Both the position numbers and the translations under genes were made by a program. Shown piece by piece: positions 24,980-57,197 of a stretch of 64,000 nucleotides of DNA. Under the pieces are notes generated by a model. That model was not told the origin of the DNA and ran no database searches. It worked only from the letters and a program-made list of their open reading frames with translations. Position 1 is the stretch's first letter. Each line of letters opens with the position of its first letter. Source of the stretch: an uncultured Undibacterium sp. (lineage in GTDB: Bacteria; Pseudomonadota; Gammaproteobacteria; Burkholderiales; Burkholderiaceae_D); the NCBI GenBank assembly GCA_963512475.1, contig CAUPNA010000004.1, positions 2,551-66,550 of the forward strand. The letters run 5' to 3'.

Positions 24980-25057
24980 TGGGAACGTTTCCAAAAAAAT
25001 GTTGACATCAAATTTTGATGAATGCTATATTTCAAATCACAAATGGAAACGATTCCA
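24980..25057 (+). promoter_or_regulatory. TBDR promoter with two LacI-type operators
   Basis: Operator TGGGAACGTTTCCA 24980-24993; -35 TTGACA 25002-25007; extended -10 TGcTATATT 25023-25031; operator TGGAAACGATTCCA 25044-25057. Confidence 0.8.
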
Positions 25058-25364
25058 TAAAAGTGAAGAATTCAGCTAATTGACCTTGTTTGCTGAACCC
25101 GACGATAAACACTATGAGCGAGCTGCTTAAGTTGGTATCGAATAAAAATAACTTTTCGTGGATAAAGACCTTTGTAAGCACTGCCGGTTAAATCGCAAGC
25201 AAGATCAAGTAAGGACGGGATTTGACAAAGGTTGTAGCTGCAAGACAGTACTTAAATTTCGCAGAAATATGTAATATCGAGAAAAACGAACACCTGTAGT
25301 GACATGACTCTACGATCCACACAAAGATCCTAGAGATCGCAGAATATCAAAACAAGGAGACAAA

Positions 25365-28061
25365 ATGTTTCATCTGAAGACTAAACGCACTCTCATGAGC
25401 GTGGCAGTTGCCGGCGCATGCGGATTGATGACCATGCACGCGCAAGCGCAGCAGGCAGAGCCAGCGAAAACGACAGAGCCAGGCACCACCAAGAAGAGCA
25501 ATACTGAATCTGAAAAAATTCAAGAGGTTCAAGTAACGGCAACCCGTTATTCAACATCTCTTTTGAAAACACCATTAGCCGTCACTGCCTTCAATCAAGA
25601 AAGCTTGGCACGCATGGGTGTAACCAGCGCCAAGGATTTGGCCAACGAAATTCCTAACGTCACCATCGTTCAATCAAACGATTCCGCGATTCAGGTCACG
25701 ATCCGTGGTATTACATCTAGCAATACTACCGAGATCGGCGATCCAGCAGTCGGCTTCCACGTTGATGGTCTATATTCACCACGTCCACAAGGTGCACAAG
25801 CCTTGATGTTCGACGTGGCACAGGTAGAAGTGTTGCGCGGTCCGCAAGGCACTTTGTTTGGTCGTAATTCGACTGGTGGTACGATCAATGTGATCTCCGC
25901 AAAACCAGATTTCAGCGGCAACTACGGTAGCGCCGAAATTGAACTGGGCAATTACAACAAGCGTCAAGTACATGCAATACAAAACATCAAAGTCAATAAT
26001 GAGTTAGCTTTGCGCGCAGCGATCATGAAAGTGACGCGCGATGGTTATGCGAATCAAATGCAAGATTTCAGCGAAGCCAATTTGCCATCCAAAGGCTGGA
26101 TTCCTGACGGCATACCGGACAATATTCAACGTTGGAATCGTAAAGTAGATCCTAGCGATTACTACACAAATCAGAATGAATGGGCTGCTCGTTTGTCCGC
26201 TTTGTACAAAGTGAACAAAGACTGGAAACTCCATGCAACCTATGAAGAGTTTCAAGATTCAAGCGCTGGCGGCACTGCCTTCAAAGATTGCGATTCCACT
26301 AGAGGCACACGTTATGCTTGTCCAAGTGGTTGGGGACGATTTGATCTGAAAATCAACGTGCCAGGTGTGACGGACATGAAGATTCGTACTTTGCGCGCGG
26401 GTTCCAATTGGAACATCAGCAATGATGCTAGCTTGGACTATAACTTCGCTTTGGCCGATCAACGTCGTAGCCAATTGTATGACAATGACAAGGGTAACCA
26501 AACAGCCTTACCATTCCAGATCACGCAAGATCATCCACGCATCGCTGGTGGGAATAACTGGGGTACATGGCCATTAGCAGATCAGTATCAACAAACGGTC
26601 GATTCCAAGTATGTCTCCACGGTGCATGAGCTGCAGTTAAAGCAACGCTTAGGCGATCTGCAATATGTGGCAGGATTGTTCTGGATGCATGAGAAGAATC
26701 AAATCAACTATGAAGTTGTCGATCTGTATCGTGCTCCGGTCGGTCTGGCATCGGGTGCATTCTATGCACAACCGGATCGTCAAGTTGATGCGAAAGCGGT
26801 GTTTGCTCAAGCAGATTGGAAGTTCGCGCCAACTTGGACTGCGACCGCAGGTCTGCGTTATAGCGTGGATAAAAAGACCGACAAAGATGGTCTGAATCTC
26901 GGAGGTTGGTGGGGCCAAAAAGAATTTTACAACGGCGGCTATGATCCGGGCACACCAGGTACACCTGGTTATCGCCTGCCACAAGGCAATGATCTGAACT
27001 ATGGTCCGGGCGGTAGCGCCGCAGCTTATAAAGGCTACGGCACACCGAGCAAAAATGATCACAGCGATTCATGGCGCAAGATGACATGGCGTTTAGGTTT
27101 GCAAACGCAGATCAATGAAAACCAAATGGCTTACGCTGCTTTGGCGACGGGATATAAAGCCGGTGGTTTCGGTGACCGCACTTTAGCGTGCGGTGGTAGC
27201 GCAACTGATCCGGTGCAGCGTAAGTGCGCGGATGGTAAACCTAACACAGAAACCTTCCTGCCTTACAAACCAGAGTTGGTGACCAACTTTGAACTGGGCT
27301 ACAAAGGTAAATTCTTAGACAATCGCATGAGTGTTTCCGCGGTTGCGTTTGCGATGAACTATAAGGATCAGCAATTAACCAATACCTATTTTGTCAGCAA
27401 ATACATCACTCCTGTACCTTGTACTTCTGATCAACCAAAATGCGACGTTTATGAAACTTGGCGCACGATTAATGTAGGCAATACCAAGATTCGTGGTCTA
27501 GAAGTTGAGTGGGACTACAAGCCATGGCCAGGCGCTAAAGTGGGTGGTGCGTTTACGGTGTTAGATACCAAGATTCATGACTATGGTTCCTACAGTGATG
27601 ACTACAACTGTGACGCACGGGTTGAGTTTGGTGATACGCCTTGTCCAGCACCTTACGCTGGCTTAGGACCTGATAATGGTAAGCGTTTGTATGACGTCAC
27701 CAATAACAGTTTGCCAAATGCGCCGAAACGTACTTTCATGTTGCATTTCTCACAGAAATTTGACTTACCTAGCGGTTACAGCTTGACGCCATATATCAAG
27801 ATGAACTGGCGCGACAAGGCCTACTTTGACGTGCGCAATGATGAGTTCAAACACATCGGTCGCTATCAAAAAGCGTATGCGTTGGTCGATGCTTCGGTAC
27901 GTTTAGATGCACCAGAAGATCAATGGCATGCTGAGCTTTTTGTACGCAATGCCAGCGATAGTAAAGCGGTGTATTGGCGTGGGGCAGGTGTTGGTGCTCA
28001 GATGAATTCGGCACCGGTTGAACCGCGCATGTTTGGTATTCGTTTTGGTTTCAATTACTAA
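25365..28061 (+). CDS. TonB-dependent receptor (898 aa), probable oligosaccharide importer
   Basis: Signal peptide, EVQVTATR TonB box, IRGI, EVLRGPQGTLFGRNSTGG, C-terminal PRMFGIRFGFNY; operators shared with GH locus. Confidence 0.92.
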   Translation: MFHLKTKRTLMSVAVAGACGLMTMHAQAQQAEPAKTTEPGTTKKSNTESEKIQEVQVTATRYSTSLLKTPLAVTAFNQESLARMGVTSAKDLANEIPNVTIVQSNDSAIQVTIRGITSSNTTEIGDPAVGFHVDGLYSPRPQGAQALMFDVAQVEVLRGPQGTLFGRNSTGGTINVISAKPDFSGNYGSAEIELGNYNKRQVHAIQNIKVNNELALRAAIMKVTRDGYANQMQDFSEANLPSKGWIPDGIPDNIQRWNRKVDPSDYYTNQNEWAARLSALYKVNKDWKLHATYEEFQDSSAGGTAFKDCDSTRGTRYACPSGWGRFDLKINVPGVTDMKIRTLRAGSNWNISNDASLDYNFALADQRRSQLYDNDKGNQTALPFQITQDHPRIAGGNNWGTWPLADQYQQTVDSKYVSTVHELQLKQRLGDLQYVAGLFWMHEKNQINYEVVDLYRAPVGLASGAFYAQPDRQVDAKAVFAQADWKFAPTWTATAGLRYSVDKKTDKDGLNLGGWWGQKEFYNGGYDPGTPGTPGYRLPQGNDLNYGPGGSAAAYKGYGTPSKNDHSDSWRKMTWRLGLQTQINENQMAYAALATGYKAGGFGDRTLACGGSATDPVQRKCADGKPNTETFLPYKPELVTNFELGYKGKFLDNRMSVSAVAFAMNYKDQQLTNTYFVSKYITPVPCTSDQPKCDVYETWRTINVGNTKIRGLEVEWDYKPWPGAKVGGAFTVLDTKIHDYGSYSDDYNCDARVEFGDTPCPAPYAGLGPDNGKRLYDVTNNSLPNAPKRTFMLHFSQKFDLPSGYSLTPYIKMNWRDKAYFDVRNDEFKHIGRYQKAYALVDASVRLDAPEDQWHAELFVRNASDSKAVYWRGAGVGAQMNSAPVEPRMFGIRFGFNY

Positions 28062-28131
28062 TTGATAGTAGCGTGATCAATCTGTAAGCAACAATTTTCA
28101 TTGAGTACATCTGCATTCTTCGGAATGATTC

Positions 28132-28180
28132 GGTCTATGTCATGCGATCACTTTTAGGTTGCATCACATAGACCTTTTTT
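28132..28180 (+). terminator. Terminator-like hairpin after the TBDR
   Basis: ggtctatgt...acatagacc stem followed by tttttt. Confidence 0.65.
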
Positions 28181-28271
28181 ATTCAGAAGAACGCCTACAA
28201 AGATTGAAATAGTTGTGCCGTAAAAGAAGTTAATACGTAAAATGAATAACATCGACTCTCCGGGAATCGCT

Positions 28272-29816
28272 ATGAATGAAAACGGTAAAAATGAAAACCG
28301 CGCAAAAGAAAATCGCATCAAAGATGTCGTCATCGTTGGTGGGGGCACTGCTGGTTGGATGAGTGCAGCAGCTATAGCGCAGTTACTGCCGACTGGATAC
28401 AACTATCGTCTGGTCGAGTCCGATCAAATTTCCACCATAGGGGTAGGAGAGGCGACGATACCTAGCATACGCAATTTCAATATGCATCTAGGCATAGATG
28501 AAAATGATTTCATCCGAAATACGCAAGGTACTTTTAAGCTCGGTATTGAATTCGTTAACTGGGGCATTAATAACAGCAAATACTTTCATGGCTTCGGCTC
28601 GGTGGGACGCGATCAGCCTACCGCAAATTTTTATCATTACTGGCTCAAACTCAATCAGCTAGGCATGGTGGGTGGTCTTGAGCCTTACTCCATCAATACG
28701 GTTGCGAGCATGTTGGGGAAGTTCAGTGTTGGTCGTCCCGACTTGCCGAATTCGCCCCTTGCCGATTTGTCGTACGCCTATCATTTTGATGCGGGTCTTT
28801 ACGCTAAATATTTACGTGCCTATGCCGAACAACGTGGCGTCAAACGTACTGAAGGTCGCATCGTCCAAACACTGTTACGTGAGAGCGATGGATTTATCGA
28901 GGCTTTGGTCATGGAGAACGGTGAAAAAATCCATGGCGATTTCTTTATTGATTGCTCGGGCATGGTTGGTCTCTTGATCGAAAAAGCCTTGAATACCGGC
29001 TACGAAGATTGGTCGCATTGGTTGCCTTGTGATACCGCTATCGCCGTGCCATGTGAGCTGGCAGGCTCGGCACAAGCACATACGCGCTCCACCGCCCACA
29101 GCGCGGGTTGGCAGTGGCGCATTCCTTTGCAGCACCGCATCGGTAACGGACACGTCTTTTCTAGTAAGTTTATGGACCACGACACCGCGCAAGACATCCT
29201 GATGAATAATCTAGACGGGAAAGCGTTGGCAGAGCCGCGTCAGATAAAATTTATTACTGGCAAACGTAAAAAAGCCTGGAACAAAAATTGTATCGCGATT
29301 GGCTTGTCAGGCGGCTTCATGGAGCCACTCGAGTCGACAAGTATTCACATGGTCAAAACAGGTTTGATGCGTTTGATTACCTTCTTCCCAGATAAAGATT
29401 TTGATCAGGTCGATATTGATAATTACAATCGCTTGACTGACAAAGAGTACGCTCAGATACGCGACTTCCTGATTTTGCATTACAAAGTGAATCAACGTGA
29501 CGACGCAGAATTCTGGCGCTATTGCCGTGAGATGGAGGTACCAGAAAGTCTGCAAGTTAAACTTGACCTCTTCGCCAGCCATGGACGAATTTTGCGCGAG
29601 AACGAAGAACTATTTCCCGAAGACAGTTGGCTACAAGTCATGCACGGACAAGGCATGCGACCCCGTCGCTACAATCCAGTCGTTGATCAGCGCAGCAAAG
29701 AAGAAATTGCCGGATTCTTGCACAATACACAGGCCGTAATTCGTAAATGTGTGGATGCCATGCCCTCGCATTTGGACTACATTCGCACCAATTGCGCTGC
29801 AAGAAAAGGCGTCTAA
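28272..29816 (+). CDS. Tryptophan halogenase family FAD-dependent protein (copy 1)
   Basis: VGGGTAGW, GVGEATIP, TFKLGI (catalytic Lys position), WQWRIPLQHR, FMEPLEST; alternative start 28242. Confidence 0.92.
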   Translation: MNENGKNENRAKENRIKDVVIVGGGTAGWMSAAAIAQLLPTGYNYRLVESDQISTIGVGEATIPSIRNFNMHLGIDENDFIRNTQGTFKLGIEFVNWGINNSKYFHGFGSVGRDQPTANFYHYWLKLNQLGMVGGLEPYSINTVASMLGKFSVGRPDLPNSPLADLSYAYHFDAGLYAKYLRAYAEQRGVKRTEGRIVQTLLRESDGFIEALVMENGEKIHGDFFIDCSGMVGLLIEKALNTGYEDWSHWLPCDTAIAVPCELAGSAQAHTRSTAHSAGWQWRIPLQHRIGNGHVFSSKFMDHDTAQDILMNNLDGKALAEPRQIKFITGKRKKAWNKNCIAIGLSGGFMEPLESTSIHMVKTGLMRLITFFPDKDFDQVDIDNYNRLTDKEYAQIRDFLILHYKVNQRDDAEFWRYCREMEVPESLQVKLDLFASHGRILRENEELFPEDSWLQVMHGQGMRPRRYNPVVDQRSKEEIAGFLHNTQAVIRKCVDAMPSHLDYIRTNCAARKGV

Positions 29817-45029: not shown

Positions 45030-45094
45030 GGTTCGTTATGTTTTGAAGGTAGTTGCTTGAGTCATTAAGTTTGATCAAGGCTGATTACGGTTGA

Positions 45095-46055: not shown

Positions 46056-46110
46056 TGGAATCGTTTCCAATTTGTCGGGAAGTATGGCATTATTCATTTT
46101 TAAATGTCAA
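46056..46110 (-). promoter_or_regulatory. GH16/DUF6445 promoter with operator
   Basis: Minus strand TTGACA (46110-46105), 18 bp, TGcCATACT (46089-46081), operator TGGAATCGTTTCCA 46056-46069. Confidence 0.8.
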
Positions 46111-46245: not shown

Positions 46246-46299
46246 TTGACATCTAAAAATGAAGAATGCTATAGTCGTCGAAGAGTGGTAACGTTTCCA
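46246..46299 (+). promoter_or_regulatory. ABC operon promoter with operator
   Basis: TTGACA 46246-46251, 18 bp, TGcTATAGT, operator TGGTAACGTTTCCA 46286-46299. Confidence 0.82.
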
Positions 46300-46414: not shown

Positions 46415-47671
46415 ATGTTCAAGCTTAACTATCCTTTACTGGCTATGTGTCTGGCCTCGTTTGCCAGTGCATCCACAGCGCAGGCGCAGGCAACCAAGCC
46501 AGTGCCTGTCGAAAAAGCCGAAATTATTCATTGGTGGACCTCTAGTAGCGAGTCGGCGGCAGCCAAGCTGATCGCTGATGCTTATCGTAAAGCCGGCGGT
46601 ATCTGGGTCGATTCGGCGGTTGCAGGTGCCGACCAGGCTAGAGCCGTGGCGATCAATCGTATCGTTGGCAGTAATCCACCCACTGCGGCGCAGTTCAACA
46701 CGACCAAGCAATTTCTTGATTTGGTCGAACAAGGCATGCTCAATAATGTCGATGACGTTGCCAAGAACGAGGGTTGGGAAAAATTTTTGCCTGAGCCCGT
46801 CTTGAATGTGATCCGGATCAAAGGCCATTACTACGCCGTGCCCGTGAATATCCATATGCAGACTTGGTTCTGGTACTCCAAAGCTGCATTTAAAAAAGCG
46901 GGTATCGCTAAAGAGCCAGCGACTGTGGATGAGATGTTTGCCGCACTCGATAAGTTGAAAGCAGCTGGCATCATTCCACTCGCGCATGGTGGCCAAGCCT
47001 GGCAAGAAACCATCGTGTTTCAAGCCATGCTAGCCAATCTCGGTGGTAAAGATCTCTATCTGAGCGTGATCCGCGATCGCGACCAAAAAGCCATCAACTC
47101 TGAAGCCTTTAAGAAAGTATTAACCGCCTTCAAGCGCATGCAGACCTATGTTGATGCAGGTGCGCCAGGTCGCAACTGGAATGACGCTACCGCATTATTG
47201 ATCAGCGGCAAAGCGGGTATGCAGATTATGGGCGATTGGGTAAAAGGGGAGTTCGCAGCAGCTAAGCAAGTCGCTGGCAAAGACTTTGGCTGTATCGCAG
47301 GATTAACCCCAAATTCGCCTTATCTGATTCAAGGTGATGCTTTCGTTTTTCCTCGCACCACTAATCCTTCTAGGGTGAACGCGCAAAAATTATTAGCGAA
47401 AGTCGTGCTGACCCCGAGCACACAGTTGGAATTCAATAAATTGAAAGGCTCGATTCCTATCCGCAGTGATGTTGATACGTCGACCATGGATATTTGCGCG
47501 CAAGCGGGGATGGCGATTATGAAAGACAAATCGCGCCAAGTAGGCATTAGCGAAATGTTTTTGACGCCAGATCAAAACGGTGCGTTGCAGGATATTTTGA
47601 CGGCATTTTGGAATACCCGCATGCCAGTAGAAAAAGCCCAAAAAAGCATTGCCAATGCTTTGAAAGACTAA
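46415..47671 (+). CDS. Sugar ABC transporter substrate-binding protein (GtsA-like)
   Basis: EIIHWWTS..E, PPTAAQ, YYAVPVNIH, MQIMGDWVKGEF, KGSIPIR. Confidence 0.9.
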   Translation: MFKLNYPLLAMCLASFASASTAQAQATKPVPVEKAEIIHWWTSSSESAAAKLIADAYRKAGGIWVDSAVAGADQARAVAINRIVGSNPPTAAQFNTTKQFLDLVEQGMLNNVDDVAKNEGWEKFLPEPVLNVIRIKGHYYAVPVNIHMQTWFWYSKAAFKKAGIAKEPATVDEMFAALDKLKAAGIIPLAHGGQAWQETIVFQAMLANLGGKDLYLSVIRDRDQKAINSEAFKKVLTAFKRMQTYVDAGAPGRNWNDATALLISGKAGMQIMGDWVKGEFAAAKQVAGKDFGCIAGLTPNSPYLIQGDAFVFPRTTNPSRVNAQKLLAKVVLTPSTQLEFNKLKGSIPIRSDVDTSTMDICAQAGMAIMKDKSRQVGISEMFLTPDQNGALQDILTAFWNTRMPVEKAQKSIANALKD

Positions 47672-47709
47672 GTAAGTCAATAAGTAAACAAATAAGTAAA
47701 TAAATACGA

Positions 47710-48612
47710 ATGCAAATCAAAGCCCTCAGCCGTAAAACCAAATCACTGATCCCATCCGCAGCCTTGCTGCCTATGGCTTTAGTGACTTTGGTCGCCTATC
47801 TGGGTGCGACACTGTGGTCGATTAAAGTCTCGTTTTCCAATTCCCGCACGATGCCGACCGACACCTTTGTCGGCATGGCGCAATACACCAAACTGTTTGA
47901 GAACGAACGGTGGCTATTATCGATAGAAAATATTGCGATCTACACGGTACTCTTTATTCTGGTCAGCATGGTCTTGGGATTTTTGCTGGCCGTATTTATC
48001 GATCAAAAAGTGACAGCAGAAGGCGTATTGCGCACGGTATTTTTGTATCCCTACGCGATGTCCTTCGTCGCGACTGGTTTGATTTGGCAATGGATGCTGA
48101 CACCTGGCATAGGCATAGAATACGCGGTGCGGCAGATGGGTTATCCGGATTTTGTGTTTGACTGGATTATTGATCAGGACAAAGTCATCTACACCATCGT
48201 GATCGCCACCGTTTGGCAAACCGCCGGCTTGGTGATGGCCTTATTGTTGGCAGCCTTGCGTGGCATAGACGAAGAAATTTGGAAAGCCGCGAGACTCGAT
48301 GGTATTCCGGTGTGGCGGGTGTATGTGTCTATTGTGATTCCTATGTTGGCACCAGCCATCGCGACCGTCTTCCTTCTATTGTCCACCACGGCAATCAAAC
48401 TATTTGATTCCGTCGTCGCCATGACCCAAGGTGGTCCCGGCACAGCCAGTGAAGTGCCGGCTAAATTCATTATGGATCACTTGTTTGGTCGCGCTAATAT
48501 TGCCCTTGCCTCGGCAGGTGCGGTCATGCTGTTAGTGCCAGTCATTGCGATACTCGCGCCCTATGTGTATGCGCGCAACCGTAATGTACGTAACCATAAG
48601 GCGGGCAAATGA
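47710..48612 (+). CDS. Sugar ABC transporter permease
   Basis: TM helices, FLYP.A.SF..TG..W, EAA-like KAARLDG. Confidence 0.9.
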   Translation: MQIKALSRKTKSLIPSAALLPMALVTLVAYLGATLWSIKVSFSNSRTMPTDTFVGMAQYTKLFENERWLLSIENIAIYTVLFILVSMVLGFLLAVFIDQKVTAEGVLRTVFLYPYAMSFVATGLIWQWMLTPGIGIEYAVRQMGYPDFVFDWIIDQDKVIYTIVIATVWQTAGLVMALLLAALRGIDEEIWKAARLDGIPVWRVYVSIVIPMLAPAIATVFLLLSTTAIKLFDSVVAMTQGGPGTASEVPAKFIMDHLFGRANIALASAGAVMLLVPVIAILAPYVYARNRNVRNHKAGK

Positions 48613-49541
48613 GCACTATTTTGCCATCCGCTGCTGATGCTACAAACGTTGCCAAATCAGCCCAAAGCCGGAAGCGACACGGCAGAAGCAAGCGATTTAG
48701 TCTCGCTCGCTTAGGCATATATGCTTTTTTGATCAGCGCCGCAATTTTCTTTTTGCTGCCGCTCTACATCATGCTCACGACCTCAGTGAAAAGCATGGAT
48801 GAAATTCGCATGGGTAACATCTTTGCCTTGCCACAGCAATTTAGCCTGAATGCCTGGACTATTGCTTGGACCAGCGCCTGCACTGGTATTGATTGCGAAG
48901 GCATACGTGGTGGCTTTATGAACTCGGTAGTGATCGCGATACCGAGTACCTTGATACCGATTTTTCTCGGTGCTTTGAATGGCTATGCCTTGTCGTTCTG
49001 GCGTCCACGTGGTGCGAATATTTTGTTTGGTATCTTGATGGTCGGTGCTTTCATCCCTGTGCAGGTGATGATCTTTCCCTTAGTGAGAATTTTAGCCAGC
49101 ATCGATTTGTATAGCTCTTTGCCAGGCATTGTCTTGGTTCATACGGTGTTTAGTATGCCGGTGATGACGCTACTCTTTCGTAATTATTACAGCACGATAC
49201 CGCATGAGCTGTTTCAAGCGGCGCGTATCGATGGTGGTGGTTTCATTCGAATTTTTATACAACTGATTTTGCCGATGTCGACCCCAATTATTGTGGTGGC
49301 GGCGATTATGCAATTGACCGGTGTTTGGAATGATTACATTCTAGGATTGGTGTTTGCTGGACGTGAGCATTTACCGATGACGGTGCAACTAAATAATGTG
49401 ATCAATACCACCACTGGTACGCGCATGTACAACGTGAATATGGCAGCGACCATTTTGACTTCGCTGGTGCCTTTGACATTGTATTTCGTCTCGGGGCGCT
49501 GGTTTGTGCGCGGTATCGCGGCAGGTGCGGTTAAGGGATAG
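48609..49541 (+). CDS. Sugar ABC transporter permease
   Basis: ELFQAARIDG EAA motif, WND, GIAAGAVKG end. Confidence 0.9.
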   Translation: MSTILPSAADATNVAKSAQSRKRHGRSKRFSLARLGIYAFLISAAIFFLLPLYIMLTTSVKSMDEIRMGNIFALPQQFSLNAWTIAWTSACTGIDCEGIRGGFMNSVVIAIPSTLIPIFLGALNGYALSFWRPRGANILFGILMVGAFIPVQVMIFPLVRILASIDLYSSLPGIVLVHTVFSMPVMTLLFRNYYSTIPHELFQAARIDGGGFIRIFIQLILPMSTPIIVVAAIMQLTGVWNDYILGLVFAGREHLPMTVQLNNVINTTTGTRMYNVNMAATILTSLVPLTLYFVSGRWFVRGIAAGAVKG

Positions 49542-49588
49542 AACAATTTTGATGCTGTTTCGAAAAAATATTAAGGCTTAGGAAAACT

Positions 49589-50653
49589 GTGGCGAATGTC
49601 TGTCTACAAAATTTAGGCATCAATCTGGGCGGGAATCAGATCATTTCTGACCTCAATTTAAACGTTGAGGCGGGAGAGTTTTTGGTTTTGCTGGGACCTT
49701 CAGGGTGCGGTAAATCCACTCTGTTGCATGCTATCGCGGGTTTGATTGATGTCAACTCAGGTAGTGTGGAAATTGCAGGTGAGGATATGACTTGGGCTGA
49801 TCCTAGCGAACGTCAAATTGGTATGGTGTTTCAATCCTACGCCTTGTATCCGACCATGACGGTAGAAAAAAACATGTCATTCGGCTTGCGTATCAACGGG
49901 ACACCCAAAGCAGAAATCGCACGACGTATAGAAAAAGTCGCTGAGATGTTGCACTTGACGCCCTTGCTGCAGCGAAAACCAGCCGCCTTGTCTGGTGGCC
50001 AAAGACAGCGGGTTGCCATCGGACGTGCTTTGGTGCGTGAGGCGGAAGTATTTTTATTTGATGAGCCCTTGTCGAATCTGGATGCCAAGCTACGTAGCAA
50101 TTTACGACGTGAACTTAAGCTTTTGCACCAACAACTGCAGTCCACCATGATTTATGTCACGCACGATCAAGTCGAGGCGATGACTTTAGCAACGCGCATC
50201 GTCGTGATGCAAGGTGGCAAAATCCAGCAAATCGGAACACCGGAATGTGTTTATGAACGCCCAGTGAACTTGTTTGTCGCGGGATTTTTGGGGGCGCCGG
50301 CGATGAATTTTATTAGCGGTGAACTCGATACTCAAGCTCACTTTGTCTCAAATACCTTGAGTATCGATTTGTCGACTTATGCTTTTGCAGCACCTTGGTC
50401 GGCGAGTGCGGAGGTCATGTTAGGTGTGCGCCCTGAGCAGATACAAATCCGTGATGATGGCCAGTTCGTCGGGGCGGTCATGTTGGTCGAGCCTATGGGT
50501 AATCATCAAGTCGTATGGCTACAGGCAGGCACGCAAACTATTTCCAGTATCGTCAACGATCAGCGTCCGTTCGAGATCGGTCAGACAGTTTTGTACACTA
50601 TCGACACGCGCAAAGTTTCTCTGTTTAATCCGCAAAGTGAGCAAAGACTATGA
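49589..50653 (+). CDS. Sugar ABC transporter ATP-binding protein (MalK/UgpC family)
   Basis: GPSGCGKST, LSGGQRQR, DEPLSNLDAK, YVTHDQ. Confidence 0.95.
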   Translation: MANVCLQNLGINLGGNQIISDLNLNVEAGEFLVLLGPSGCGKSTLLHAIAGLIDVNSGSVEIAGEDMTWADPSERQIGMVFQSYALYPTMTVEKNMSFGLRINGTPKAEIARRIEKVAEMLHLTPLLQRKPAALSGGQRQRVAIGRALVREAEVFLFDEPLSNLDAKLRSNLRRELKLLHQQLQSTMIYVTHDQVEAMTLATRIVVMQGGKIQQIGTPECVYERPVNLFVAGFLGAPAMNFISGELDTQAHFVSNTLSIDLSTYAFAAPWSASAEVMLGVRPEQIQIRDDGQFVGAVMLVEPMGNHQVVWLQAGTQTISSIVNDQRPFEIGQTVLYTIDTRKVSLFNPQSEQRL

Positions 50654-52209
50654 ACCATTCTACCAATGCAGGCCAAGCCGCCAGCACTGATGCGCAGATA
50701 CGTGACATCGTGATCGTCGGCGGTGGCACGGCAGGCTGGATGACGGCGGCTGCACTGTCACGCATGCTACCGCAGGGTAAGCGTATTCGTTTGGTGGAAT
50801 CAGATCAGATCTCCACCATCGGTGTAGGCGAAGCGACGATACCTAGCATCCGCGCCTTTAATCAATTGCTCAATCTGGATGAAGATGAATTCATGCGTCA
50901 GACCCAGGCCACCTTTAAGCTGGGTATCGAGTTCGTCAATTGGGGCAAGCAGGGCGATTCCTACATCCACGGTTTTGGTCAGATTGGACGCGATCAGGTC
51001 GTGGCGAAGTTTTATCAATATTGGTTGAAGATGTATCAGGCCGGTACAGTGCCGGATTTGGAAGCGTTTTCCATCAATACGGTAGCGCCGCGTCAGGGCA
51101 AATTTATGCGTCCGCCCAAGGACATGCCGAATTCACCGCTGTCCGATATTTCGTACGCTTTTCATTTTGATGCAGGTCTGTATGCGCGCTATTTACGGGG
51201 CATCAGCGAAGCACAGGGGGTGGTGCGAAGTGAAGGCCGTATCGTCGACGTGTTGACACGTGCTCACGATGGACATATCGAAACCTTGGTGATGGAAAAT
51301 GGTGAGCAGTTCACCGGTGATCTATTCATCGATTGCTCAGGTTTGGCCGCTTTGCTGATAGAAAAGACTTTGCAAACCGGCTATGAGGATTGGAGTCACT
51401 GGTTGCCAGCGAATAGTGCGATTGCTGTGCCATGTACATCGACCACACCTTTACATCCTTATACGCGCTCGACCGCACATAAGGCAGGCTGGCAATGGCG
51501 TATTCCTTTGCAACACCGTATCGGCAATGGACATGTGTTTAGTAGTCAATTTATGAGCGCCGACGAAGCCCAGTCTATCTTGTTGAACAATCTCGATGGC
51601 AGTGTGTTGGCGGAACCGCGCTTAATTAAATTCACGACTGGCAAGCGTAAGAAAGCCTGGAACAAGAATTGTGTTGCGATGGGACTGGCGGGTGGTTTTA
51701 TGGAGCCACTCGAATCAACCAGCATACACATGGTGCAAACTGCCATCATGCGTCTGCTGAGTTTGTTTCCAGATCGCGGTTTTAATCAGGTTGATATCGA
51801 TACTTATAACGCGCAGAACGATGAAGAATATCAGCGTATTCGTGATTTTCTCATCATGCACTATAAGCTGAATACGCATGAAAATGCGCCGTTCTGGGAA
51901 TATTGTCGCACGATGGAAGTACCCGCTGAAGTGCAGCATCGTATTGATTTGTATCGTAGTCACGGCAGAATCTTCCGCTTAGGCGAAGAGTTATTTGCCG
52001 ATGCCAGCTGGCTGCAAGTCATGCACGGACAAGGTTTGCGCGCAACGTCTTATCATCCATTAGTCGATCAGCGTAGTGCCGAGGACATACAGTATTTTTT
52101 AGATCAGGTACAAAAAACGATAGCCAAATGCGTGGAAGTGATGCCGACGCATGCGGAATTTATTGCAGCGACTTGTGCGGCTAATACAGTAGTGAGTGCG
52201 GCGGCTTGA
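50650..52209 (+). CDS. Tryptophan halogenase family FAD-dependent protein (copy 2)
   Basis: VGGGTAGW, TFKLGI, WQWRIPLQHR, FMEPLEST; ATGA overlap with ABC ATPase stop. Confidence 0.92.
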   Translation: MNHSTNAGQAASTDAQIRDIVIVGGGTAGWMTAAALSRMLPQGKRIRLVESDQISTIGVGEATIPSIRAFNQLLNLDEDEFMRQTQATFKLGIEFVNWGKQGDSYIHGFGQIGRDQVVAKFYQYWLKMYQAGTVPDLEAFSINTVAPRQGKFMRPPKDMPNSPLSDISYAFHFDAGLYARYLRGISEAQGVVRSEGRIVDVLTRAHDGHIETLVMENGEQFTGDLFIDCSGLAALLIEKTLQTGYEDWSHWLPANSAIAVPCTSTTPLHPYTRSTAHKAGWQWRIPLQHRIGNGHVFSSQFMSADEAQSILLNNLDGSVLAEPRLIKFTTGKRKKAWNKNCVAMGLAGGFMEPLESTSIHMVQTAIMRLLSLFPDRGFNQVDIDTYNAQNDEEYQRIRDFLIMHYKLNTHENAPFWEYCRTMEVPAEVQHRIDLYRSHGRIFRLGEELFADASWLQVMHGQGLRATSYHPLVDQRSAEDIQYFLDQVQKTIAKCVEVMPTHAEFIAATCAANTVVSAAA

Positions 52210-52239
52210 GTTTGCCATTGAGCAGAGAATTAGAAAGTT

Positions 52240-52436: not shown

Positions 52437-52665
52437 AATTTTTTTGCCGGTAGTTTGGCTAGAGAGCATTAATTAAGTAAGTGGATAAGTGGCTACGTGG
52501 GAATTAAATCGGAGTATGCAACAAAATATGAAATAGCTTGCTAAGTTACAAAAATCGTCAGAAGCAAGCGAAGGCATTTACAATATGCTGATTTATTGAG
52601 CAATTTTGATTTAGCACCGTAGAACATAAAATAATTTGCTGAAGAAAGCATGAGAACAAAAAAAT

Positions 52666-53742
52666 ATGGCAACTATTAAAGATGTCGCCCGTTTGGCGGG
52701 AGTGGGATTGGGAACAGCTTCTCGAGTCGTGAGCGGCAAGGGGTCGGTGTCACCAGCGACTTTAGAGCGTGTGAGAAAAGCCATTGAAGAATTGGATTTT
52801 CGTCCTTCGCATGCGGCGCGTTCTCTGCTGTCCGGCTCTAGCCGTATGATAGGTGTCTACATACCTTTGCTTAAAGGTACGTTTTATATGCCTATTATGC
52901 AAGCGATCGACACCGAGTTGCGTGCCGAGGGTTTGCACATGGTGGTGGCGTTCGGTGTTGGTGCTGGCGACGTGCGGGAACAAGCGATTGATGGGATTAA
53001 TTTCCTAATTGAACGTGGTTGCGATGGTTTGATTGTGATGAGCAATGCGTTACAAGATGCCGATATCGACAACTTAGGTTCTAAAAAAACGAATTTAGTC
53101 GTATTGAACCACCGCTACGATTGCATCGCGGATCAGTGTTTTACTGCCGATCATAATTTGGGTGGACGTATGGCGGCGCAGGCATTGCTGAAGCAGAAGC
53201 ATAAAAAAATTGCGGTCATTGCCGGTCCCGCTAGCGCACCCGATAACGTGGATCGTATTGGTGGTTTTATGCACGAATTAGAACAGGCTGGAATCGACGT
53301 TAAAAAGATGTGGGTAGCCGAAAGTAACTTTGCACCGGATGGTGGTTGGGCGTCAGCGCAGGAATTGGTGGAGTCTGCCTACGATTTTACTGCAGTATTT
53401 TGCGCGAATGATGAGATGGCAATCGGCGCTCTATCTTACTTCCAGCATGCGGGCATCGCTGTGCCGGGTGAAGTTTCCGTGGTGGGTTACGATGATACCG
53501 AAACCGCTTCTTTTTCCGCACCGCGTTTATCCTCAGTGCACATCGCTTGGCGTGAGATGACTTTGAATGGTTTAAGTTTTTTACTGAATCGTTGTTACGA
53601 TTTGCAACGCCCAGTACAGCGTAAGTTTCCGGTTAGTATGACTTGGCGTAGTTCGGTGGAAAAAGCAGCGCGCACTTCTTTCCGTAAGCGATTGAATTTA
53701 GCAAGTGTTGAACAAGCTGGTGAAAAAATTAGCGAGGAATGA
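52666..53742 (+). CDS. LacI family transcriptional regulator
   Basis: MATIKDVARLAGVGLGTASRV HTH, AVFCANDEMAIG, SVVGYDD. Confidence 0.95.
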   Translation: MATIKDVARLAGVGLGTASRVVSGKGSVSPATLERVRKAIEELDFRPSHAARSLLSGSSRMIGVYIPLLKGTFYMPIMQAIDTELRAEGLHMVVAFGVGAGDVREQAIDGINFLIERGCDGLIVMSNALQDADIDNLGSKKTNLVVLNHRYDCIADQCFTADHNLGGRMAAQALLKQKHKKIAVIAGPASAPDNVDRIGGFMHELEQAGIDVKKMWVAESNFAPDGGWASAQELVESAYDFTAVFCANDEMAIGALSYFQHAGIAVPGEVSVVGYDDTETASFSAPRLSSVHIAWREMTLNGLSFLLNRCYDLQRPVQRKFPVSMTWRSSVEKAARTSFRKRLNLASVEQAGEKISEE

Positions 53743-53813
53743 GCTAAAAAATAGTGATCACTTTTTTTCATAAAAAAACATGCACATTTTGCGTGTTTTT
53801 TTTGGATGTCAAA

Positions 53814-53827
53814 TGGAAACGATTCCA
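53814..53827. promoter_or_regulatory. LacI-type operator upstream of GH5
   Basis: TGGAAACGATTCCA, identical to 25044-25057. Confidence 0.82.
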
Positions 53828-53872
53828 TTTAAGAATAGACGATGTTGGAAATAGGTAGAAGGGGATCTGTTA

Positions 53873-55489
53873 ATGAAAAAATTGAATATGGATGGTCGTC
53901 TGCGCCAGGTTGGTCGCCGCTCCATGGGACTTAGCTTGAGCCTATTCTTGGCATTCATTAGCCGAGGCTTCACAACGATGAAGTTAATAACCAGGCAGTC
54001 AAAACCCCTCAACGCTGAGACGCAGAGGAGCAGAGGAGCGCAGAGAAAACCTTGCAGCGCCTTCATGTCTTTGCTTCCTCTCTTTTTGTTTTTTCGGCGT
54101 CTCAGCGTCTCGGCGTTGAAGGGTCTTGTGCTTAACTTACTGGCGTTGAGCTTTACGCTAAGTCTAAGTTTCAGCCTGAGCGCTTGCGGCTCCGGTGACG
54201 CTACTTCCACAAAAACGGCAACACCGACAGTCAATGTCATCGTCCCCATCCCGCAAGCTATTGTGCGTGAAACGCCGACCATGTTGCATACCGAAGGCAC
54301 GCTGTGGTTGCGCGAGAGCGGTAAACCGATACAACTCAAGGGCGTCAATCTTGGCAATTGGCTGATGCAAGAATTTTGGATGATGGGGCAGGGTTCGAAC
54401 GGTATCGACGATCAGTGCAAACTAGAAGCAGTGTTGGATAAGCGTTTTGGTTATGCGGAACGGGAACGCCTTTACCGTATGTATCGCAAGAATTGGATGC
54501 GCGAGCGCGACTGGGATTTGATCGCGCAATACGGCATGAATGTGGTGCGTCTGCCTTTCATCTGGAGCGTGATCGAAGACGAAAAAAATCCCGGTCATCT
54601 ACGCATTGATGCTTGGGAATATCTAGACGATGCCATCGCTCAGGCAGAGCGTCGTGGCATGCACGTGATACTCGATTTGCACGGCGCGGTCGGTAGTCAG
54701 GGATGGGAACATCATTCCGGTTGCGCCGGTAAAAATTTGTATTGGAGCACACCTGAATTTCAAGAGCGCACGATCTGGTTGTGGCAAGCGATCGCGGCGC
54801 GTTATAAAGATAGGGCAGCGGTGGCAGGCTACAGTTTATTAAATGAGCCTTGGGGTACTACGCCTGATGTGATGGCAAAAGAAATGATTCGCCTGTATCA
54901 CGCGGTGCGTAGTGTCGACACTAATCATGTGATTATTTTGCCCGGTCATTCCAGTGGCATTGATGCGTATGGCAAACCAGCAGATCGAGGCATGCGCAAT
55001 GTCGCATTCGAAATGCATCCTTATCCAGGGTTTTTTGGTTGGGGTCAACCGTCGCTACAAGTACATAAAGATTGGTTGCGCTGCGGTAGTTCCGGCAATG
55101 GCGGCGTCTGCGAATGGAACACCCGATTAAAGAATTTGAATACCGCCTTATTGATAGGCGAGTTTCAACCCTGGGCGGGTTTAGGCGCGGAATTGGGTGG
55201 ACAAATTACCCGCGTCACCTATGACACATATGCCAGTTACGGATGGGCGGCCACGAGTTGGTCGTATAAATTGCTCAGTAATAATGGCGCGCAAGGCAAT
55301 GGTACCTGGGGACTGGTGACCAACAGTGCTCAAGTCAAAGTACCTGCGCTCGACTTTAATCAAGCTAGTTTGAGCGAGATAGAAAAATTATTCGAACTCT
55401 TTGGCAGCATTCCCTATGAACCACAACAGGCAGTAATGAATTGGATGACCAGCGCTGTTGCACCCGATCCTTTTGCACGTTCCCAATAA
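53873..55489 (+). CDS. GH5 glucanase, lipoprotein (true start uncertain)
   Basis: GVNLGNWL, NVVRLPF, ILDLHGA, LLNEP (acid/base), IGEF (nucleophile); lipobox LSAC at residue 105. Confidence 0.88.
   Translation: MKKLNMDGRLRQVGRRSMGLSLSLFLAFISRGFTTMKLITRQSKPLNAETQRSRGAQRKPCSAFMSLLPLFLFFRRLSVSALKGLVLNLLALSFTLSLSFSLSACGSGDATSTKTATPTVNVIVPIPQAIVRETPTMLHTEGTLWLRESGKPIQLKGVNLGNWLMQEFWMMGQGSNGIDDQCKLEAVLDKRFGYAERERLYRMYRKNWMRERDWDLIAQYGMNVVRLPFIWSVIEDEKNPGHLRIDAWEYLDDAIAQAERRGMHVILDLHGAVGSQGWEHHSGCAGKNLYWSTPEFQERTIWLWQAIAARYKDRAAVAGYSLLNEPWGTTPDVMAKEMIRLYHAVRSVDTNHVIILPGHSSGIDAYGKPADRGMRNVAFEMHPYPGFFGWGQPSLQVHKDWLRCGSSGNGGVCEWNTRLKNLNTALLIGEFQPWAGLGAELGGQITRVTYDTYASYGWAATSWSYKLLSNNGAQGNGTWGLVTNSAQVKVPALDFNQASLSEIEKLFELFGSIPYEPQQAVMNWMTSAVAPDPFARSQ
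54001..54136. repeat. MITE-like palindromic element, copy 2, inside the GH5 ORF
   Basis: aaaacccctcaacgctgagacgc ... gcgtctcggcgttgaagggtcttgtgcttaac, homologous to 52240-52351. Confidence 0.85.
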
Positions 55490-55493
55490 GCTT

Positions 55494-56879
55494 ATGATGA
55501 CTACTCCCTCTACTTCAGTGCTTCCTTCTCCCTCTCAACCTGCGCTAGCGCGCGCTGACTTTCCTGCCGATTTTGCTTGGGGTTGTTCGACATCTTCGTT
55601 TCAAATTGAAGGCGGTGCGGCGCTGGACGGACGCGCTGAATCAATCTGGGACAGATTCTGTCAACAGCCGGGCAAGATCCGCGATGGCAGCAATGCCAGC
55701 GTCGCCTGTGATCACTATCATCGCTGGCCAGAAGATCTGAATATCGCCCAACAATTTGGTATGAATGCTTATCGCTTTTCGATTGCATGGCCGCGAGTGA
55801 TCAGTGAATTAGGTGCGAAGCCCAATCAACGCGGACTCGATTTCTATTCGCGTCTGGTGGATGGCATGCTAGAGCGCGGCTTGCAACCTTGGGCCACGCT
55901 TTATCATTGGGATTTGCCGCAGTATTTGCAAGATCAGGGTGGTTGGGAGCGTCGTGCAACAGTCGATGCTTATCTTGAATATGTGGATGCGACCACTCGG
56001 CACTTAGGTGATAGAGTCAAACATTGGATCACGCACAATGAACCTTGGTGTACAGCCATGCATGGCAACTGGGATGGTATGCATGCGCCGGGTCAGCAAA
56101 ATTTCAAAGCGGCACTACAAGTGTGTCACCATGTATTGCTCTCCCATGGTTTGGCGGTACCTTTGATTAAATCGAATGTGGCGCAGGCACAAGTGGGTAT
56201 TGCCCTGAGCTTGCATCCGCTGCGCAGCGCAAGTGATTCGCCTGAAGACCAAGCAGCAATGCAGCGTCACGATGGCTTGCGCAATCGCTGGTTTCTTGAT
56301 CCTCTTTTTGGACGTGGCTATCCGGCTGATATCCTAGAACATTGTGCGGCGGATCTACCTGACATCGAGGCGACCGATCTCGAAGTCATCGCCACGCCGA
56401 TCGATTTTCTGGGCGTGAACTACTACTTCCCCGAAACGATTGCTGATGCGCCGGAAATACCACCCTTACATACTAAATTGGTCGTACTGCCAGATCGTGA
56501 GCGCACCGGTTTTGCCTGGGAAGTAGCGCCTGATGGGATGCGCGAATTGCTAGTCCGTATCAAAAATGATTATCCTAAGGTTCCCATTTTCTTGACCGAA
56601 AATGGTTCCAGCTATGAAGATCAGGTCGAAGCTGACGGTAGTGTTTGCGATATAGAACGGCGCAATTATTTCATGCGTCATCTGGATGCCTTGAAACAGG
56701 CACGTGCAGAAGGTGTTGATGTACGCGGCTATTTTGCCTGGAGTTTGATGGATAATTTTGAGTGGGCAGAAGGCTATTTACGCCGCTTTGGTATGGTGTA
56801 CATCGATTTTGTCACGCAGAAACGCACAGTGAAAGAAAGCGGACGCTGGTTTAGCGCGTTTTTGAATCAGAATAAATAG
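55494..56879 (+). CDS. GH1 beta-glucosidase (cytoplasmic)
   Basis: FAWG..TSSFQIEG, TLYHWDLP, THNEPW, FLTENG, WSLMDNFEWAEGY. Confidence 0.93.
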   Translation: MMTTPSTSVLPSPSQPALARADFPADFAWGCSTSSFQIEGGAALDGRAESIWDRFCQQPGKIRDGSNASVACDHYHRWPEDLNIAQQFGMNAYRFSIAWPRVISELGAKPNQRGLDFYSRLVDGMLERGLQPWATLYHWDLPQYLQDQGGWERRATVDAYLEYVDATTRHLGDRVKHWITHNEPWCTAMHGNWDGMHAPGQQNFKAALQVCHHVLLSHGLAVPLIKSNVAQAQVGIALSLHPLRSASDSPEDQAAMQRHDGLRNRWFLDPLFGRGYPADILEHCAADLPDIEATDLEVIATPIDFLGVNYYFPETIADAPEIPPLHTKLVVLPDRERTGFAWEVAPDGMRELLVRIKNDYPKVPIFLTENGSSYEDQVEADGSVCDIERRNYFMRHLDALKQARAEGVDVRGYFAWSLMDNFEWAEGYLRRFGMVYIDFVTQKRTVKESGRWFSAFLNQNK

Positions 56880-57149
56880 TATTGCAAAATGGGTAATCGT
56901 GGCCTGCGATTATTAACAAGTCCGTTATGTGGATTTGCTGCACTAGGGTTTATGCACTACTTTTCCCGGGGGGGAGGAGTAAGCAAGAGTGGAGGCGAAT
57001 GGCAATCAACACAACTTGATGCGCCGTTCGCCTCGCATTCTAAACGCCAATTTTGCCCGCTAGTATGGTTTGCCCACATGCTATTTCTCCCAGCTTTTCG
57101 TCCCTAAGTTGTATCTCTTTCACATCCCCAAAACATTTTTTAAAAATAA

Positions 57150-57197
57150 TTGGTAACGTTTCCAAAATTCATTTAGAATAAAACGGAAACGTTACCA
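57150..57197 (+). promoter_or_regulatory. GH3 promoter with two operators
   Basis: TTGGTA-18-TAGAAT (57150-57179); operators TGGTAACGTTTCCA 57151-57164 and CGGAAACGTTACCA 57184-57197. Confidence 0.78.

Follow-up and report, generated by a model that had tools for sequence, protein, structure and literature searches.

A beta-glucoside regulon controlled by BglR has been predicted in Shewanella and Alteromonadales (Rodionov et al. 2010, PMC2996990; BglR(1) in RegPrecise, PMC4052901), and BglR also controls a gene for a TonB-dependent outer-membrane transporter (TBDR) that is located at a separate place and has its own operator (PMC2996990). In Streptomyces and Thermobifida, the LacI-family cellobiose repressors CebR and CelR, which recognize the box TGGGAGCGCTCCCA (PMC4358012), repress genes for beta-glucan and cellulose use and are released by a beta-glucose disaccharide. 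The CUT loci of Xanthomonas and aquatic Proteobacteria, such as sux with the LacI-type SuxR, combine a TBDR, an inner-membrane transporter, glycan-degrading enzymes and a LacI-type repressor into one carbohydrate-scavenging unit (Blanvillain et al. 2007, PMC1790865). A full-text literature search yielded no published regulon for beta-glucan use in Undibacterium or the Oxalobacteraceae, and none of the exact operator strings reported below was found in print, the only published one being the actinobacterial CebR box. Here, we describe a predicted beta-glucan regulon in an uncultured Undibacterium sp., most of which is located in a window of 64,000 nucleotides, the whole stretch of DNA that was analysed. 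The features of the window are as follows:

24980..24993: TBDR operator O1, TGGGAACGTTTCCA; ends 8 nt upstream of the -35 hexamer
25002..25031, plus strand: predicted sigma-70 promoter of the TBDR-halogenase unit, read from the sequence; TTGACA, 18 nt, TATATT
25044..25057: TBDR operator O2, TGGAAACGATTCCA; 12 nt downstream of the -10 hexamer, at about +6 to +19 of the predicted start
25365..29816, plus strand: TBDR-halogenase unit; TBDR (25365-28061), then Trp-halogenase-like flavoprotein (28242-29816)
44307..45991, minus strand: GH16-DUF6445 unit; GH16 lipoprotein (45095-45991), then DUF6445 (44307-45029), from Pfam
46056..46069: GH16 operator; 11 nt downstream of the -10 hexamer of a minus-strand promoter
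46110-46105 and 46086-46081, minus strand: predicted GH16 promoter; TTGACA, 18 nt, CATACT
46246..46275, plus strand: predicted sigma-70 promoter of the ABC operon; TTGACA, 18 nt, TATAGT, 11/12 matches and a TG extension
46286..46299: ABC-halogenase operator, TGGTAACGTTTCCA; 10 nt downstream of the -10 hexamer
46415..52209, plus strand: ABC-halogenase operon; binding protein, two permeases, MalK-like ATPase and second Trp-halogenase-like gene, from Pfam
52666..53742, plus strand: gene for the predicted LacI-family repressor, 358 aa; LacI HTH and Peripla_BP domains in Pfam
53777..53803, plus strand: terminator-like hairpin and T-run; ends the lacI unit directly before the next operator
53814..53827: GH5-GH1 operator, TGGAAACGATTCCA; 46 nt upstream of the ATG at 53873
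53873..56879, plus strand: GH5-GH1 operon; GH5 exo-beta-1,3-glucanase-like protein and cytoplasmic GH1 beta-glucosidase, from Pfam
57151..57164: GH3 operator O1, TGGTAACGTTTCCA; overlaps the -35-like hexamer TTGGTA (57150-57155)
57184..57197: GH3 operator O2, CGGAAACGTTACCA; 4 nt after the -10 hexamer TAGAAT (57174-57179)
57472..62994, plus strand: GH3-MFS-GH1 operon; periplasmic GH3 exo-1,3/1,4-beta-glucanase, MFS permease and second cytoplasmic GH1 beta-glucosidase, from Pfam

The TBDR combines Plug and TonB_dep_Rec barrel domains in Pfam, and the flavoprotein at 28242-29816 matches Trp_halogenase at E 5e-188 with the GxGxxG and WxWxIP motifs present. The GH16 protein, which has the lipobox LSAC at its N-terminus, is endo-beta-1,3(4)-glucanase-like and matches the PDB laminarinases 6XOF (E 4e-79) and 3ILN (E 6e-67). 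Products of the GH5-GH1 operon match 9KU5, 8Z2W and 6ZB9, and its GH1 is without signal peptide; the GH3 has a signal peptide and matches ExoP (3RRX, 3USZ; E 4e-189). The ABC binding protein matches the Pseudomonas glucose-binding proteins 5XPJ (E 5.9e-88) and 8HQQ (E 2.5e-83) as well as the 5DVF group (5DVF, 5DVI, 5DVJ; E 1.9e-87). Since the system is closest to transporters with Pseudomonas-type glucose-binding proteins, it is probably a glucose-type rather than an oligosaccharide importer that takes up glucose released in the periplasm, and disaccharides are more likely to be imported by the MFS permease.

Compared by published description, the content of BglR(1) is shared here: endo-1,3-glucanase, periplasmic and cytoplasmic beta-glucosidases, permease, glucose importer and TBDR, supplied by GH16, GH3, two GH1, MFS, a glucose ABC system and the TBDR, and the two pathways follow one logic. 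The layout is not unusual, because the predicted Shewanella regulon already includes a TBDR gene that is located apart and has an operator of its own. However, the lineage is different, the Oxalobacteraceae being Betaproteobacteria, for which no BglR group appears in the 2014 LacI census (PMC4052901). The window LacI is probably not orthologous to BglR, as a search for distant orthologs across the class, in 400 evenly sampled genomes, gave no homolog at E<=1e-70. Furthermore, an ABC system takes the place of the GGP permease in glucose uptake, the other permease belongs to the MFS instead of the GPH type, and two Trp-halogenase-like genes, DUF6445, GH5 and GH5-CBM6 come in addition.

The operators and the CebR/CelR box have the 14-bp frame TGGnAnCGnTnCCA in common and agree in the outer TGG/CCA, in A5/T10 and in the central CG; at positions 4, 6, 9 and 11, the operators have A/T and the box has G/C. 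We rejected membership in the CebR/CelR group, since the match to T. fusca CelR (5YSZ, E 7e-40) is at the general family level, no closer than to PurR or CcpA, and the transporter is not CebEFG-like, its binding protein resembling glucose-binding proteins and not CebE; the host is also Gram-negative and adds a TBDR step. All four component classes of a CUT locus (PMC1790865) are present under one shared operator, with the differences that beta-glucans take the place of the sucrose of sux and that the unit is split over three genomic places, united only by that operator. A polysaccharide utilization locus (PUL) of the Bacteroidota type was rejected, as no match to the SusD family was obtained among the 20 ORFs scanned and the host is a betaproteobacterium.

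A sequence-only reading of this DNA had placed seven such palindromes, and none elsewhere in the window, at the promoters of the TBDR-halogenase, GH16-DUF6445, ABC-halogenase, GH5-GH1 and GH3-MFS-GH1 units, and our searches agreed with it on every site. Matches to the pattern TGGNANCGNTTCCA were located at 24980, 25044, 46056, 46286, 53814 and 57151, with a total of 9 strand-matches in the window as compared to 0.02 expected from 100 dinucleotide shuffles, in any of which there was at most one. The seventh site, at 57184, deviates from a perfect palindrome by 2 mismatches. The remaining matches, at 16692, 38463, 48641 and 51059, all contained 3 mismatches, for which 3.3 are expected by chance, and we therefore count no further operators in the window.

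The same reading had proposed a motif scan of the genome, which we carried out on the 4.39-Mb assembly. Only 8 sites scored at least 18 bits: the seven in the window and one full-strength operator outside it, at position 11918 of another contig (C88), with a sharp drop in scores below these. The eighth operator is located 398 bp upstream of a gene for a secreted GH5-CBM6 endoglucanase and has been kept at orthologs of this gene in 5 genomes. The idea of a regulon made up of two loci 15 kb apart is thus upheld with respect to the shared operators, but the endoglucanase gene extends the regulon beyond the window. The lower-scoring matches that we examined were rejected, being all inside coding regions or beside unrelated genes, as was C38:21210 (TGGAGACGTTTCCA, 16.8-19.2 bits), which is flanked by two unrelated genes that converge on it with their 3' ends and encode a GDYXXLXY protein and a PBP5-type carboxypeptidase. 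The list of operators may be incomplete since the assembly is 92% complete and in 250 contigs.

All seven window operators (7/7) are intergenic and upstream of beta-glucan gene units, as called with Pfam, and the majority overlap sigma-70-like promoters. The ABC, GH16 and second TBDR operators follow the -10 hexamer at 10-12 nt, the first GH3 operator and the C88 operator are placed over the -35 hexamer, and operators abut or overlap the promoters of the ABC, GH16, TBDR, GH3 and C88 units. The promoter hexamers of GH5 are weak and the promoter scan made no call there. Several operators are 275-400 bp from the start codon, which is more distant than usual for the LacI family, and an Rfam scan of the window found no riboswitch or leader in the long 5' UTRs. 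The consensus is TGGaAaCGtTtCCA, a CG-centred palindrome of even length (14 bp), in which the central CG is invariant in 8/8 genomic and 162 orthologous sites. Such palindromes are typical of the LacI family, as are operator pairs spaced by about 22 and 32 bp (PMC4052901). The two GH3 operators are 33 bp apart from centre to centre, and the pair has been kept in four related loci (L004, L005, L007, L012), of which L004, with the same layout as here, is from the culturable close relative Undibacterium danionis CCM 8677.

The protein encoded at 52666-53742 matches PF00356 over residues 3-48 (E 6e-17) and Peripla_BP_1, _3 and _4 over residues 61-331, with 2RGY as the best PDB match (E 5e-79). Residues 46-57 read RPSHAARSLLSG, a hinge with AARSL in which the leucine is at the expected place, as judged by eye and from a BLASTP alignment to a paralog. 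In repressors of the LacI/GalR family, a leucine of the hinge helix inserts into the central CpG of the operator. No operator was found in the 457-bp region upstream of lacI itself (52210-52665). Autoregulation is found in about three-quarters of local LacI regulators (PMC4052901), and read-through from the ABC operon could be a route to it here.

In about 75 of the 80 best LacI-ortholog loci, which span Undibacterium, Duganella, Massilia, Rugamonas and Telluria, the motif was present beside the LacI ortholog in matching promoter positions, and this AT-rich motif was kept even at 60-69% GC (range of the loci, 46-69%). Nearly all of these loci are labelled Oxalobacteraceae or unclassified MAGs, the closest being from Undibacterium, and three are labelled otherwise (a Burkholderia isolate, a Rhodoferax MAG and a Burkholderiales MAG). 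In 41 related loci, with GC contents of 46-69%, the ABC promoter reads TTGACAC...TATAnT; the spacing between GH16 promoter and operator was kept in 14 loci, and the order of hairpin, T8 and operator in 35 GH5-type and 20 GH1-type loci. In 3 further genomes of the genus, the TBDR orthologs have retained both operators at spacings of 64-66 bp with diverged leaders, and the promoter hexamers are identical in L085-L087 despite divergent flanks; no operators were found at paralogous TBDRs. In two relatives (L049, L053) the TBDR-halogenase pair is inside the LacI locus with operators upstream, and in three others (L028, L033, L035) the TBDR is part of a site-GH1-TBDR-GH16-GH3 string. Among 61 genomes of the genus, the motif count was 11.7 per genome with a close LacI ortholog and 1.9 without (Mann-Whitney p = 1e-8; genomes not phylogenetically independent), as compared to a control of about 2. 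One species, G072, has naturally lost lacI and kept the operators; the deletion looks recent since it also removed half of GH5. In public data, the DNA itself was located in freshwater metagenomes, and the single metatranscriptome found (X21) contained relatives as fragmentary contigs, mostly 90-95% alike, that yielded no transcript ends or expression contrast.

We consider it very likely that the 14-bp palindromes are operators of the LacI-family repressor encoded in the window. The predicted control of all units by this protein, as put forward in the sequence-only reading, is favoured by promoter overlap, genome-wide specificity, footprinting across about 80 loci, co-occurrence in 61 genomes and the distinct motifs of the paralogs. 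The predicted membership of the distant TBDR also gained support, from the operator pair kept at its orthologs and its position inside the LacI locus of some relatives.

The palindromes could be regulatory and yet be bound by another factor, a LacI paralog or a global catabolite regulator, leaving the neighbouring LacI with a narrower or different role. The genome contains five LacI-family genes, lacI has no operator of its own upstream, G072 retains its operators despite the deletion, and cross-recognition is conceivable since the paralog motifs share the core nnAAnCGnTTnn with the window motif. However, 3 of the 4 other paralogs have nearby palindromes that are each distinct from the TGG...CCA motif: two of these, TGCAAnCGnTTGCA and TGAAAnCGnTTTCA, differ from it only at positions 2-3 and 12-13 and are adjacent to their own regulators, and the third, beside the C14 LacI, is unrelated. 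With the motif flanking the LacI ortholog in so many loci, at background levels in genus members without it, and with a deletion in G072 that appears recent, we regard binding by another factor as very unlikely. It is highly improbable that the LacI, when bound to these sites, activates transcription or has a dual role, or that its signal is glucose, as for a general hexose sensor, and not beta-glucan oligomers. A glucose-type ABC importer in the regulon would suit such a sensor, as would the effectors listed for the alphaproteobacterial BglR(2) ('beta-glucoside, glucose') and proposed for the related GluR (glucose) (PMC4052901), and the first TBDR operator precedes the -35 hexamer, which would be in keeping with activation. 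Yet, most operators overlap the -35 or +1 region in the classic geometry of repression, and a repressor induced by the end product glucose is still a repressor.

It is extremely improbable that the repeats have no operator function and were copied passively, as part of a promoter cassette or small mobile element that was duplicated. The TBDR, ABC, GH16 and C88 promoters share the spacer tgaAgAATGCTAta beyond the palindrome and there are REP- or MITE-like repeats in the region, but across genera the palindrome alone has been kept while spacers and flanks have diverged, at GC contents of up to 69%. In addition, the palindrome occurs in varied contexts (downstream of -10, over -35, after a terminator), is confined to beta-glucan genes and tracks one regulator in its count.

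With the LacI as repressor, dimers would be bound in the absence of inducer on or beside the -35, -10 or +1 region of the five sigma-70 promoters in the window and of the one on C88, and would block transcription at all six. The paired operators of the TBDR (64 bp) and GH3 (33 bp) would be on the same helical face, which suggests cooperative binding. The inducer, a guess from enzyme homology as is the exact glycan, would be a breakdown product of beta-glucan, probably a beta-linked glucose disaccharide and possibly glucose, that releases the repressor. The surface GH16 laminarinase and the secreted GH5-CBM6 endoglucanase would then cut beta-1,3 and mixed-linkage glucans, the TBDR would import the oligomers, and the periplasmic GH3, probably also the GH5, would trim them to glucose and disaccharides. 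Glucose would enter through the GtsA-like ABC system, and disaccharides through the MFS permease to be split by the two cytoplasmic GH1 enzymes.

The predicted regulon is well supported in silico but of an ordinary kind for bacterial sugar use, and what is known about LacI-type regulation is unchanged by it. It provides a testable regulatory map for the use of beta-glucans of the laminarin, chrysolaminarin and lichenan type in the Oxalobacteraceae, which are common heterotrophs in freshwater and soil, and G072 offers a ready comparison as a natural lacI-null species. The well-defined operator can be used for annotation across the family, and an otherwise anonymous TBDR is assigned a predicted substrate class.

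Trp-halogenase-like and DUF6445 genes, for which a role in carbohydrate use is not obvious, also come under predicted sugar control in this regulon, and this may aid functional work. It is possible, if doubtful, that these proteins function in the TBDR-mediated uptake or processing of beta-glucans and are not halogenases of secondary metabolism. A literature search found no relevant publication on an association of halogenases with TBDRs. The genome contains three Trp-halogenase-like paralogs, each within a glycan locus with predicted LacI control: one is directly behind the TBDR, one has a start that overlaps the stop of the glucose-ABC ATPase gene, and the third is divergent from a second TBDR with the operators of a second LacI regulon between them. 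An operator of this second regulon is also present in the promoter of the GH5-CBM6 endoglucanase gene, which, with one operator per regulon, would be a candidate point of integration for two repressors.

A pattern scan of the window with TGGNANCGNTTCCA returned palindromes at 24980, 25044, 46056, 46286, 53814 and 57151, amounting to 9 strand-matches where 0.02 were expected from 100 dinucleotide-preserving shuffles (shuffle maximum 1). A seventh site, CGGAAACGTTACCA at 57184, was recovered at two mismatches to the perfect palindrome, and all remaining matches in the window had three mismatches and were at chance level (3.3 expected). The seven coordinates of the sequence-only reading were thus right, as was its statement that the window holds no further copies. 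Its gene annotation agrees with the Pfam assignments:

25365-28061, plus strand, TonB-dependent receptor (TBDR)
28242-29816, plus strand, Trp-halogenase-like gene behind the TBDR
44307-45029, minus strand, DUF6445, after GH16
45095-45991, minus strand, GH16
46415-50653, plus strand, ABC binding protein, two permeases and ATPase
50650-52209, plus strand, second Trp-halogenase-like gene, after the ABC ATPase
52666-53742, plus strand, LacI
53873-55489, plus strand, GH5
55458-56879, plus strand, first GH1
57472-60045, plus strand, GH3
60235-61626, plus strand, MFS
61648-62994, plus strand, second GH1

The assembly containing the window (C4:2551-66550) comprises 4.39 Mb in 250 contigs, with 46% GC and 92% completeness. 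A weight-matrix scan of this genome returned the seven window sites and one more full-strength site, at C88:11918, and scores fell off after these eight irrespective of whether the matrix was built from window sites or from orthologous sites. The C88 site is intergenic and supplies, with its right half, the -35 hexamer of a predicted promoter with a TG-extended -10 (TAATCT). A secreted GH5-CBM6-CBM6/35 endoglucanase, the catalytic domain of which resembles EGZ/Cel5-type endoglucanases, is encoded ~400 bp downstream. The operator is kept upstream of the orthologs of this gene in five other Undibacterium genomes. The next-best match, at C38:21210, is located between two convergent unrelated genes and was regarded as a chance occurrence.

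Three of the promoters predicted from the sequence next to the operators have the same hexamer spacing:

25002-25031, plus strand, TBDR promoter, TTGACA-18-TATATT
46246-46275, plus strand, near-consensus ABC-operon promoter, TTGACA-18-TATAGT
minus strand, divergent GH16 promoter, TTGACA-18-CATACT

The ABC-operon operator starts 10 nt past its promoter and the GH16 operator lies 11 nt beyond its own. The TBDR promoter is flanked on both sides, with the first operator (O1) ending 8 nt ahead of the -35 and the second (O2) starting 12 nt past the -10, and at the GH3 promoter O1 overlaps a -35-like hexamer and O2 begins 4 nt past TAGAAT. The GH5 operator, associated with weak promoter hexamers, is located directly behind the terminator-like hairpin of lacI, 46 nt ahead of the ATG. 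Judged against these predicted promoters, the arrangement is a repression geometry. The centre spacings of the paired sites, 64 bp at the TBDR and 33 bp at GH3, are near whole numbers of helical turns; a census of the LacI family found inter-site distance peaks at 22 and 32 bp, which were read there as cooperative binding (PMC4052901).

Outside the operator, four regulon promoters have a spacer and extended -10 sequence in common, tgaAgAATGCTAta (window 25008-25031, 46252-46275 and, on the minus strand, 46104-46081; C88 11932-11955), indicative either of promoters of common descent or of an additional element. The intergenic segment just 5' of the TBDR promoter and operators (24696-24865) contains two perfect DnaA boxes, TTATCCACA, as well as related ones. 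GC-rich REP- or MITE-like hairpin repeats were observed in the intergenic regions at 46140-46230, 52240-52340, 52400-52440 and 57340-57420, among them the long leader of GH3 and the segment 5' of lacI.

A search of reference genomes with the LacI protein as query gave 80 loci. Those in Undibacterium danionis and other Undibacterium species are the most similar (80-97% identity), followed by ones in Duganella, Massilia, Rugamonas, Pseudoduganella, Janthinobacterium and Telluria (64-72% identity), so that the window is assigned to an Undibacterium (Oxalobacteraceae). Footprinting, in which the window proteins and the motif were mapped onto these loci, placed the palindrome 5' of the binding-protein gene, between lacI and GH5/GH1, and 5' of GH3 in ~75 of the 80. 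The binding-protein promoter has the pattern TTGACAC, 17-18 nt, TATAnT, 9-12 nt, TGG(T/G)AACGTTTCCA in 41 loci, despite unalignable flanks and genomic GC contents of 46-69%, and the order of terminator and operator behind lacI is retained in 55. An AT-rich 14-mer that stays unchanged at fixed promoter distances in genomes of 65-69% GC is strong comparative evidence of function.

The genome contains five LacI-family genes. The paralog near C5:5907 has palindromes of its own, TGCAAACGATTGCA and TGCAATCGATTGCA, and probably represents a third, separate sugar regulon (C5 ~5900-7300), while the one near C159:5761 is accompanied by TGAAAACGTTTTCA-type palindromes; both sets depart from the TGG...CCA motif at positions 2-3 and 12-13. 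Near the C14 paralog there is an unrelated palindrome, also CG-centred, and no palindrome stands out near the paralog at C5:29086. We also counted the motif on both strands in 61 genomes of the genus. The mean count was 11.7 (range 8-16) in the 15 genomes with a LacI ortholog at least 80% identical, 3.8 in the 12 with an ortholog of 59-71% identity and 1.9 in the 34 with none, compared to about 2 for a reversed-pattern control across all genomes. The first and last groups differ with a Mann-Whitney p of 1e-8, which is not an independent-sample statistic since the genomes are related. The sole outlier, G072, keeps the whole regulon and five operators; a deletion of ~2.3 kb (L091 on contig C28, ~11200-11360, corresponding to ~52300-54680 in the window) has taken out lacI together with the GH5 operator and the 5' half of GH5, so that this Undibacterium species appears to be a natural lacI-null. 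No operator of lacI itself was found in the genome studied here. Because lacI in many relatives comes immediately after the binding-protein gene with its operator, or is preceded by a site of its own, autoregulation via read-through is possible.

The sequence-only reading had placed all operator-bearing units, including the distant TBDR, under the LacI at 52666. Membership of the TBDR is well supported by its conserved operators and by contiguous loci in relatives. In TBDR orthologs from three other genomes of the genus (81-96% identity), O1, promoter and O2 are kept at a spacing of 64-66 bp, and the remaining upstream region has diverged past recognition; no site was found at paralogous TBDRs (44-54% identity). 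In two Massilia-like genomes (L049, L053), the TBDR-halogenase pair adjoins DUF6445, the binding protein, the second halogenase and LacI, with sites 5' of the TBDR, and a string site-GH1-TBDR-GH16-GH3 contains the TBDR in three further Undibacterium species. It therefore looks as if an ancestrally contiguous locus was interrupted secondarily, giving the 14.5-kb separation in the window.

By comparison with solved structures, GH16 (closest to 6XOF and 3ILN), which carries a lipoprotein signal, is a predicted endo-beta-1,3(4)-glucanase of the laminarinase type, and GH3, which has a signal peptide, a predicted exo-1,3/1,4-beta-glucanase of the ExoP type (E 4e-189). GH5 is nearest, weakly, to exo-beta-1,3-glucanases, and both GH1 enzymes of the window are without signal peptide. 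For the ABC transporter, glucose import is likelier than oligosaccharide import because its binding protein resembles the Pseudomonas glucose-binding proteins 5XPJ, the 5DVF group and 8HQQ (E 6e-88 to 2.5e-83). In the mechanism that we propose around the observed operator sites, their positions and their conservation, each palindrome would be bound by a LacI-family dimer that blocks RNA polymerase, and two dimers may cooperate at the TBDR and GH3 promoters. Repression would presumably be relieved by a beta-glucan degradation product. The glucan would be cut by GH16 at the cell surface and by the secreted GH5-CBM6 enzyme, the TBDR would import the oligomers, and periplasmic GH3, probably also GH5, would convert them to glucose and disaccharides. 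Glucose would enter by the ABC system and disaccharides by the MFS permease, to be split by the GH1 enzymes.

The same logic is seen in the predicted BglR regulon of Shewanella, with extracellular LamA, periplasmic and cytoplasmic beta-glucosidases, a permease, a glucose importer and a TBDT gene located elsewhere with its own BglR site (PMC2996990). Xanthomonas CUT loci likewise unite a TBDR, transporter, enzymes and a LacI-type repressor (PMC1790865). The window regulon is thus a further case of a known regulon type, a solid and useful annotation but no surprise. BglR groups in the RegPrecise census cover Gamma- and Alphaproteobacteria and Firmicutes, with none in Betaproteobacteria (PMC4052901). 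The CebR/CelR box TGGGAGCGCTCCCA has the frame TGGnAnCGnTnCCA in common with the window operator, and the CelR protein is no more similar to the window LacI than PurR is. A search for the operator strings in the searchable literature found none. The regulator clade seems restricted to Oxalobacteraceae-like lineages, as a search of 400 genomes sampled from the class gave no LacI homolog at E<=1e-70.

Contig C159 (L101, 1-6747) harbours a second locus that shares the design of the window regulon, with GH1 and a TBDR on one strand followed by a divergent Trp-halogenase-like gene and the LacI paralog, which is 30% identical to the window LacI. The palindromes of this locus, at 3521, 3542 and 5417, are found in the divergent region and 5' of the LacI paralog. 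All three halogenase-like paralogs, two in the window and one on C159, belong to predicted LacI-controlled glycan units. The GxGxxG and WxWxIP motifs are intact in both window flavoproteins, and the second gene begins with a start codon that overlaps the ABC ATPase stop codon. Given this placement and the intact motifs, a carbohydrate-related role is worth testing. The pattern TGAAANCGNTTTCA has exactly three matches in the whole genome. Two are on C159, and the third, at C88:11962, falls within the endoglucanase promoter (C88 11918-11975, L001), 44 bp 3' of its TGG-type operator. Such an element was also present in both of the two endoglucanase-ortholog loci for which flanks were displayed, and with both operator types recurring at orthologs, this promoter may integrate control by two LacI repressors.
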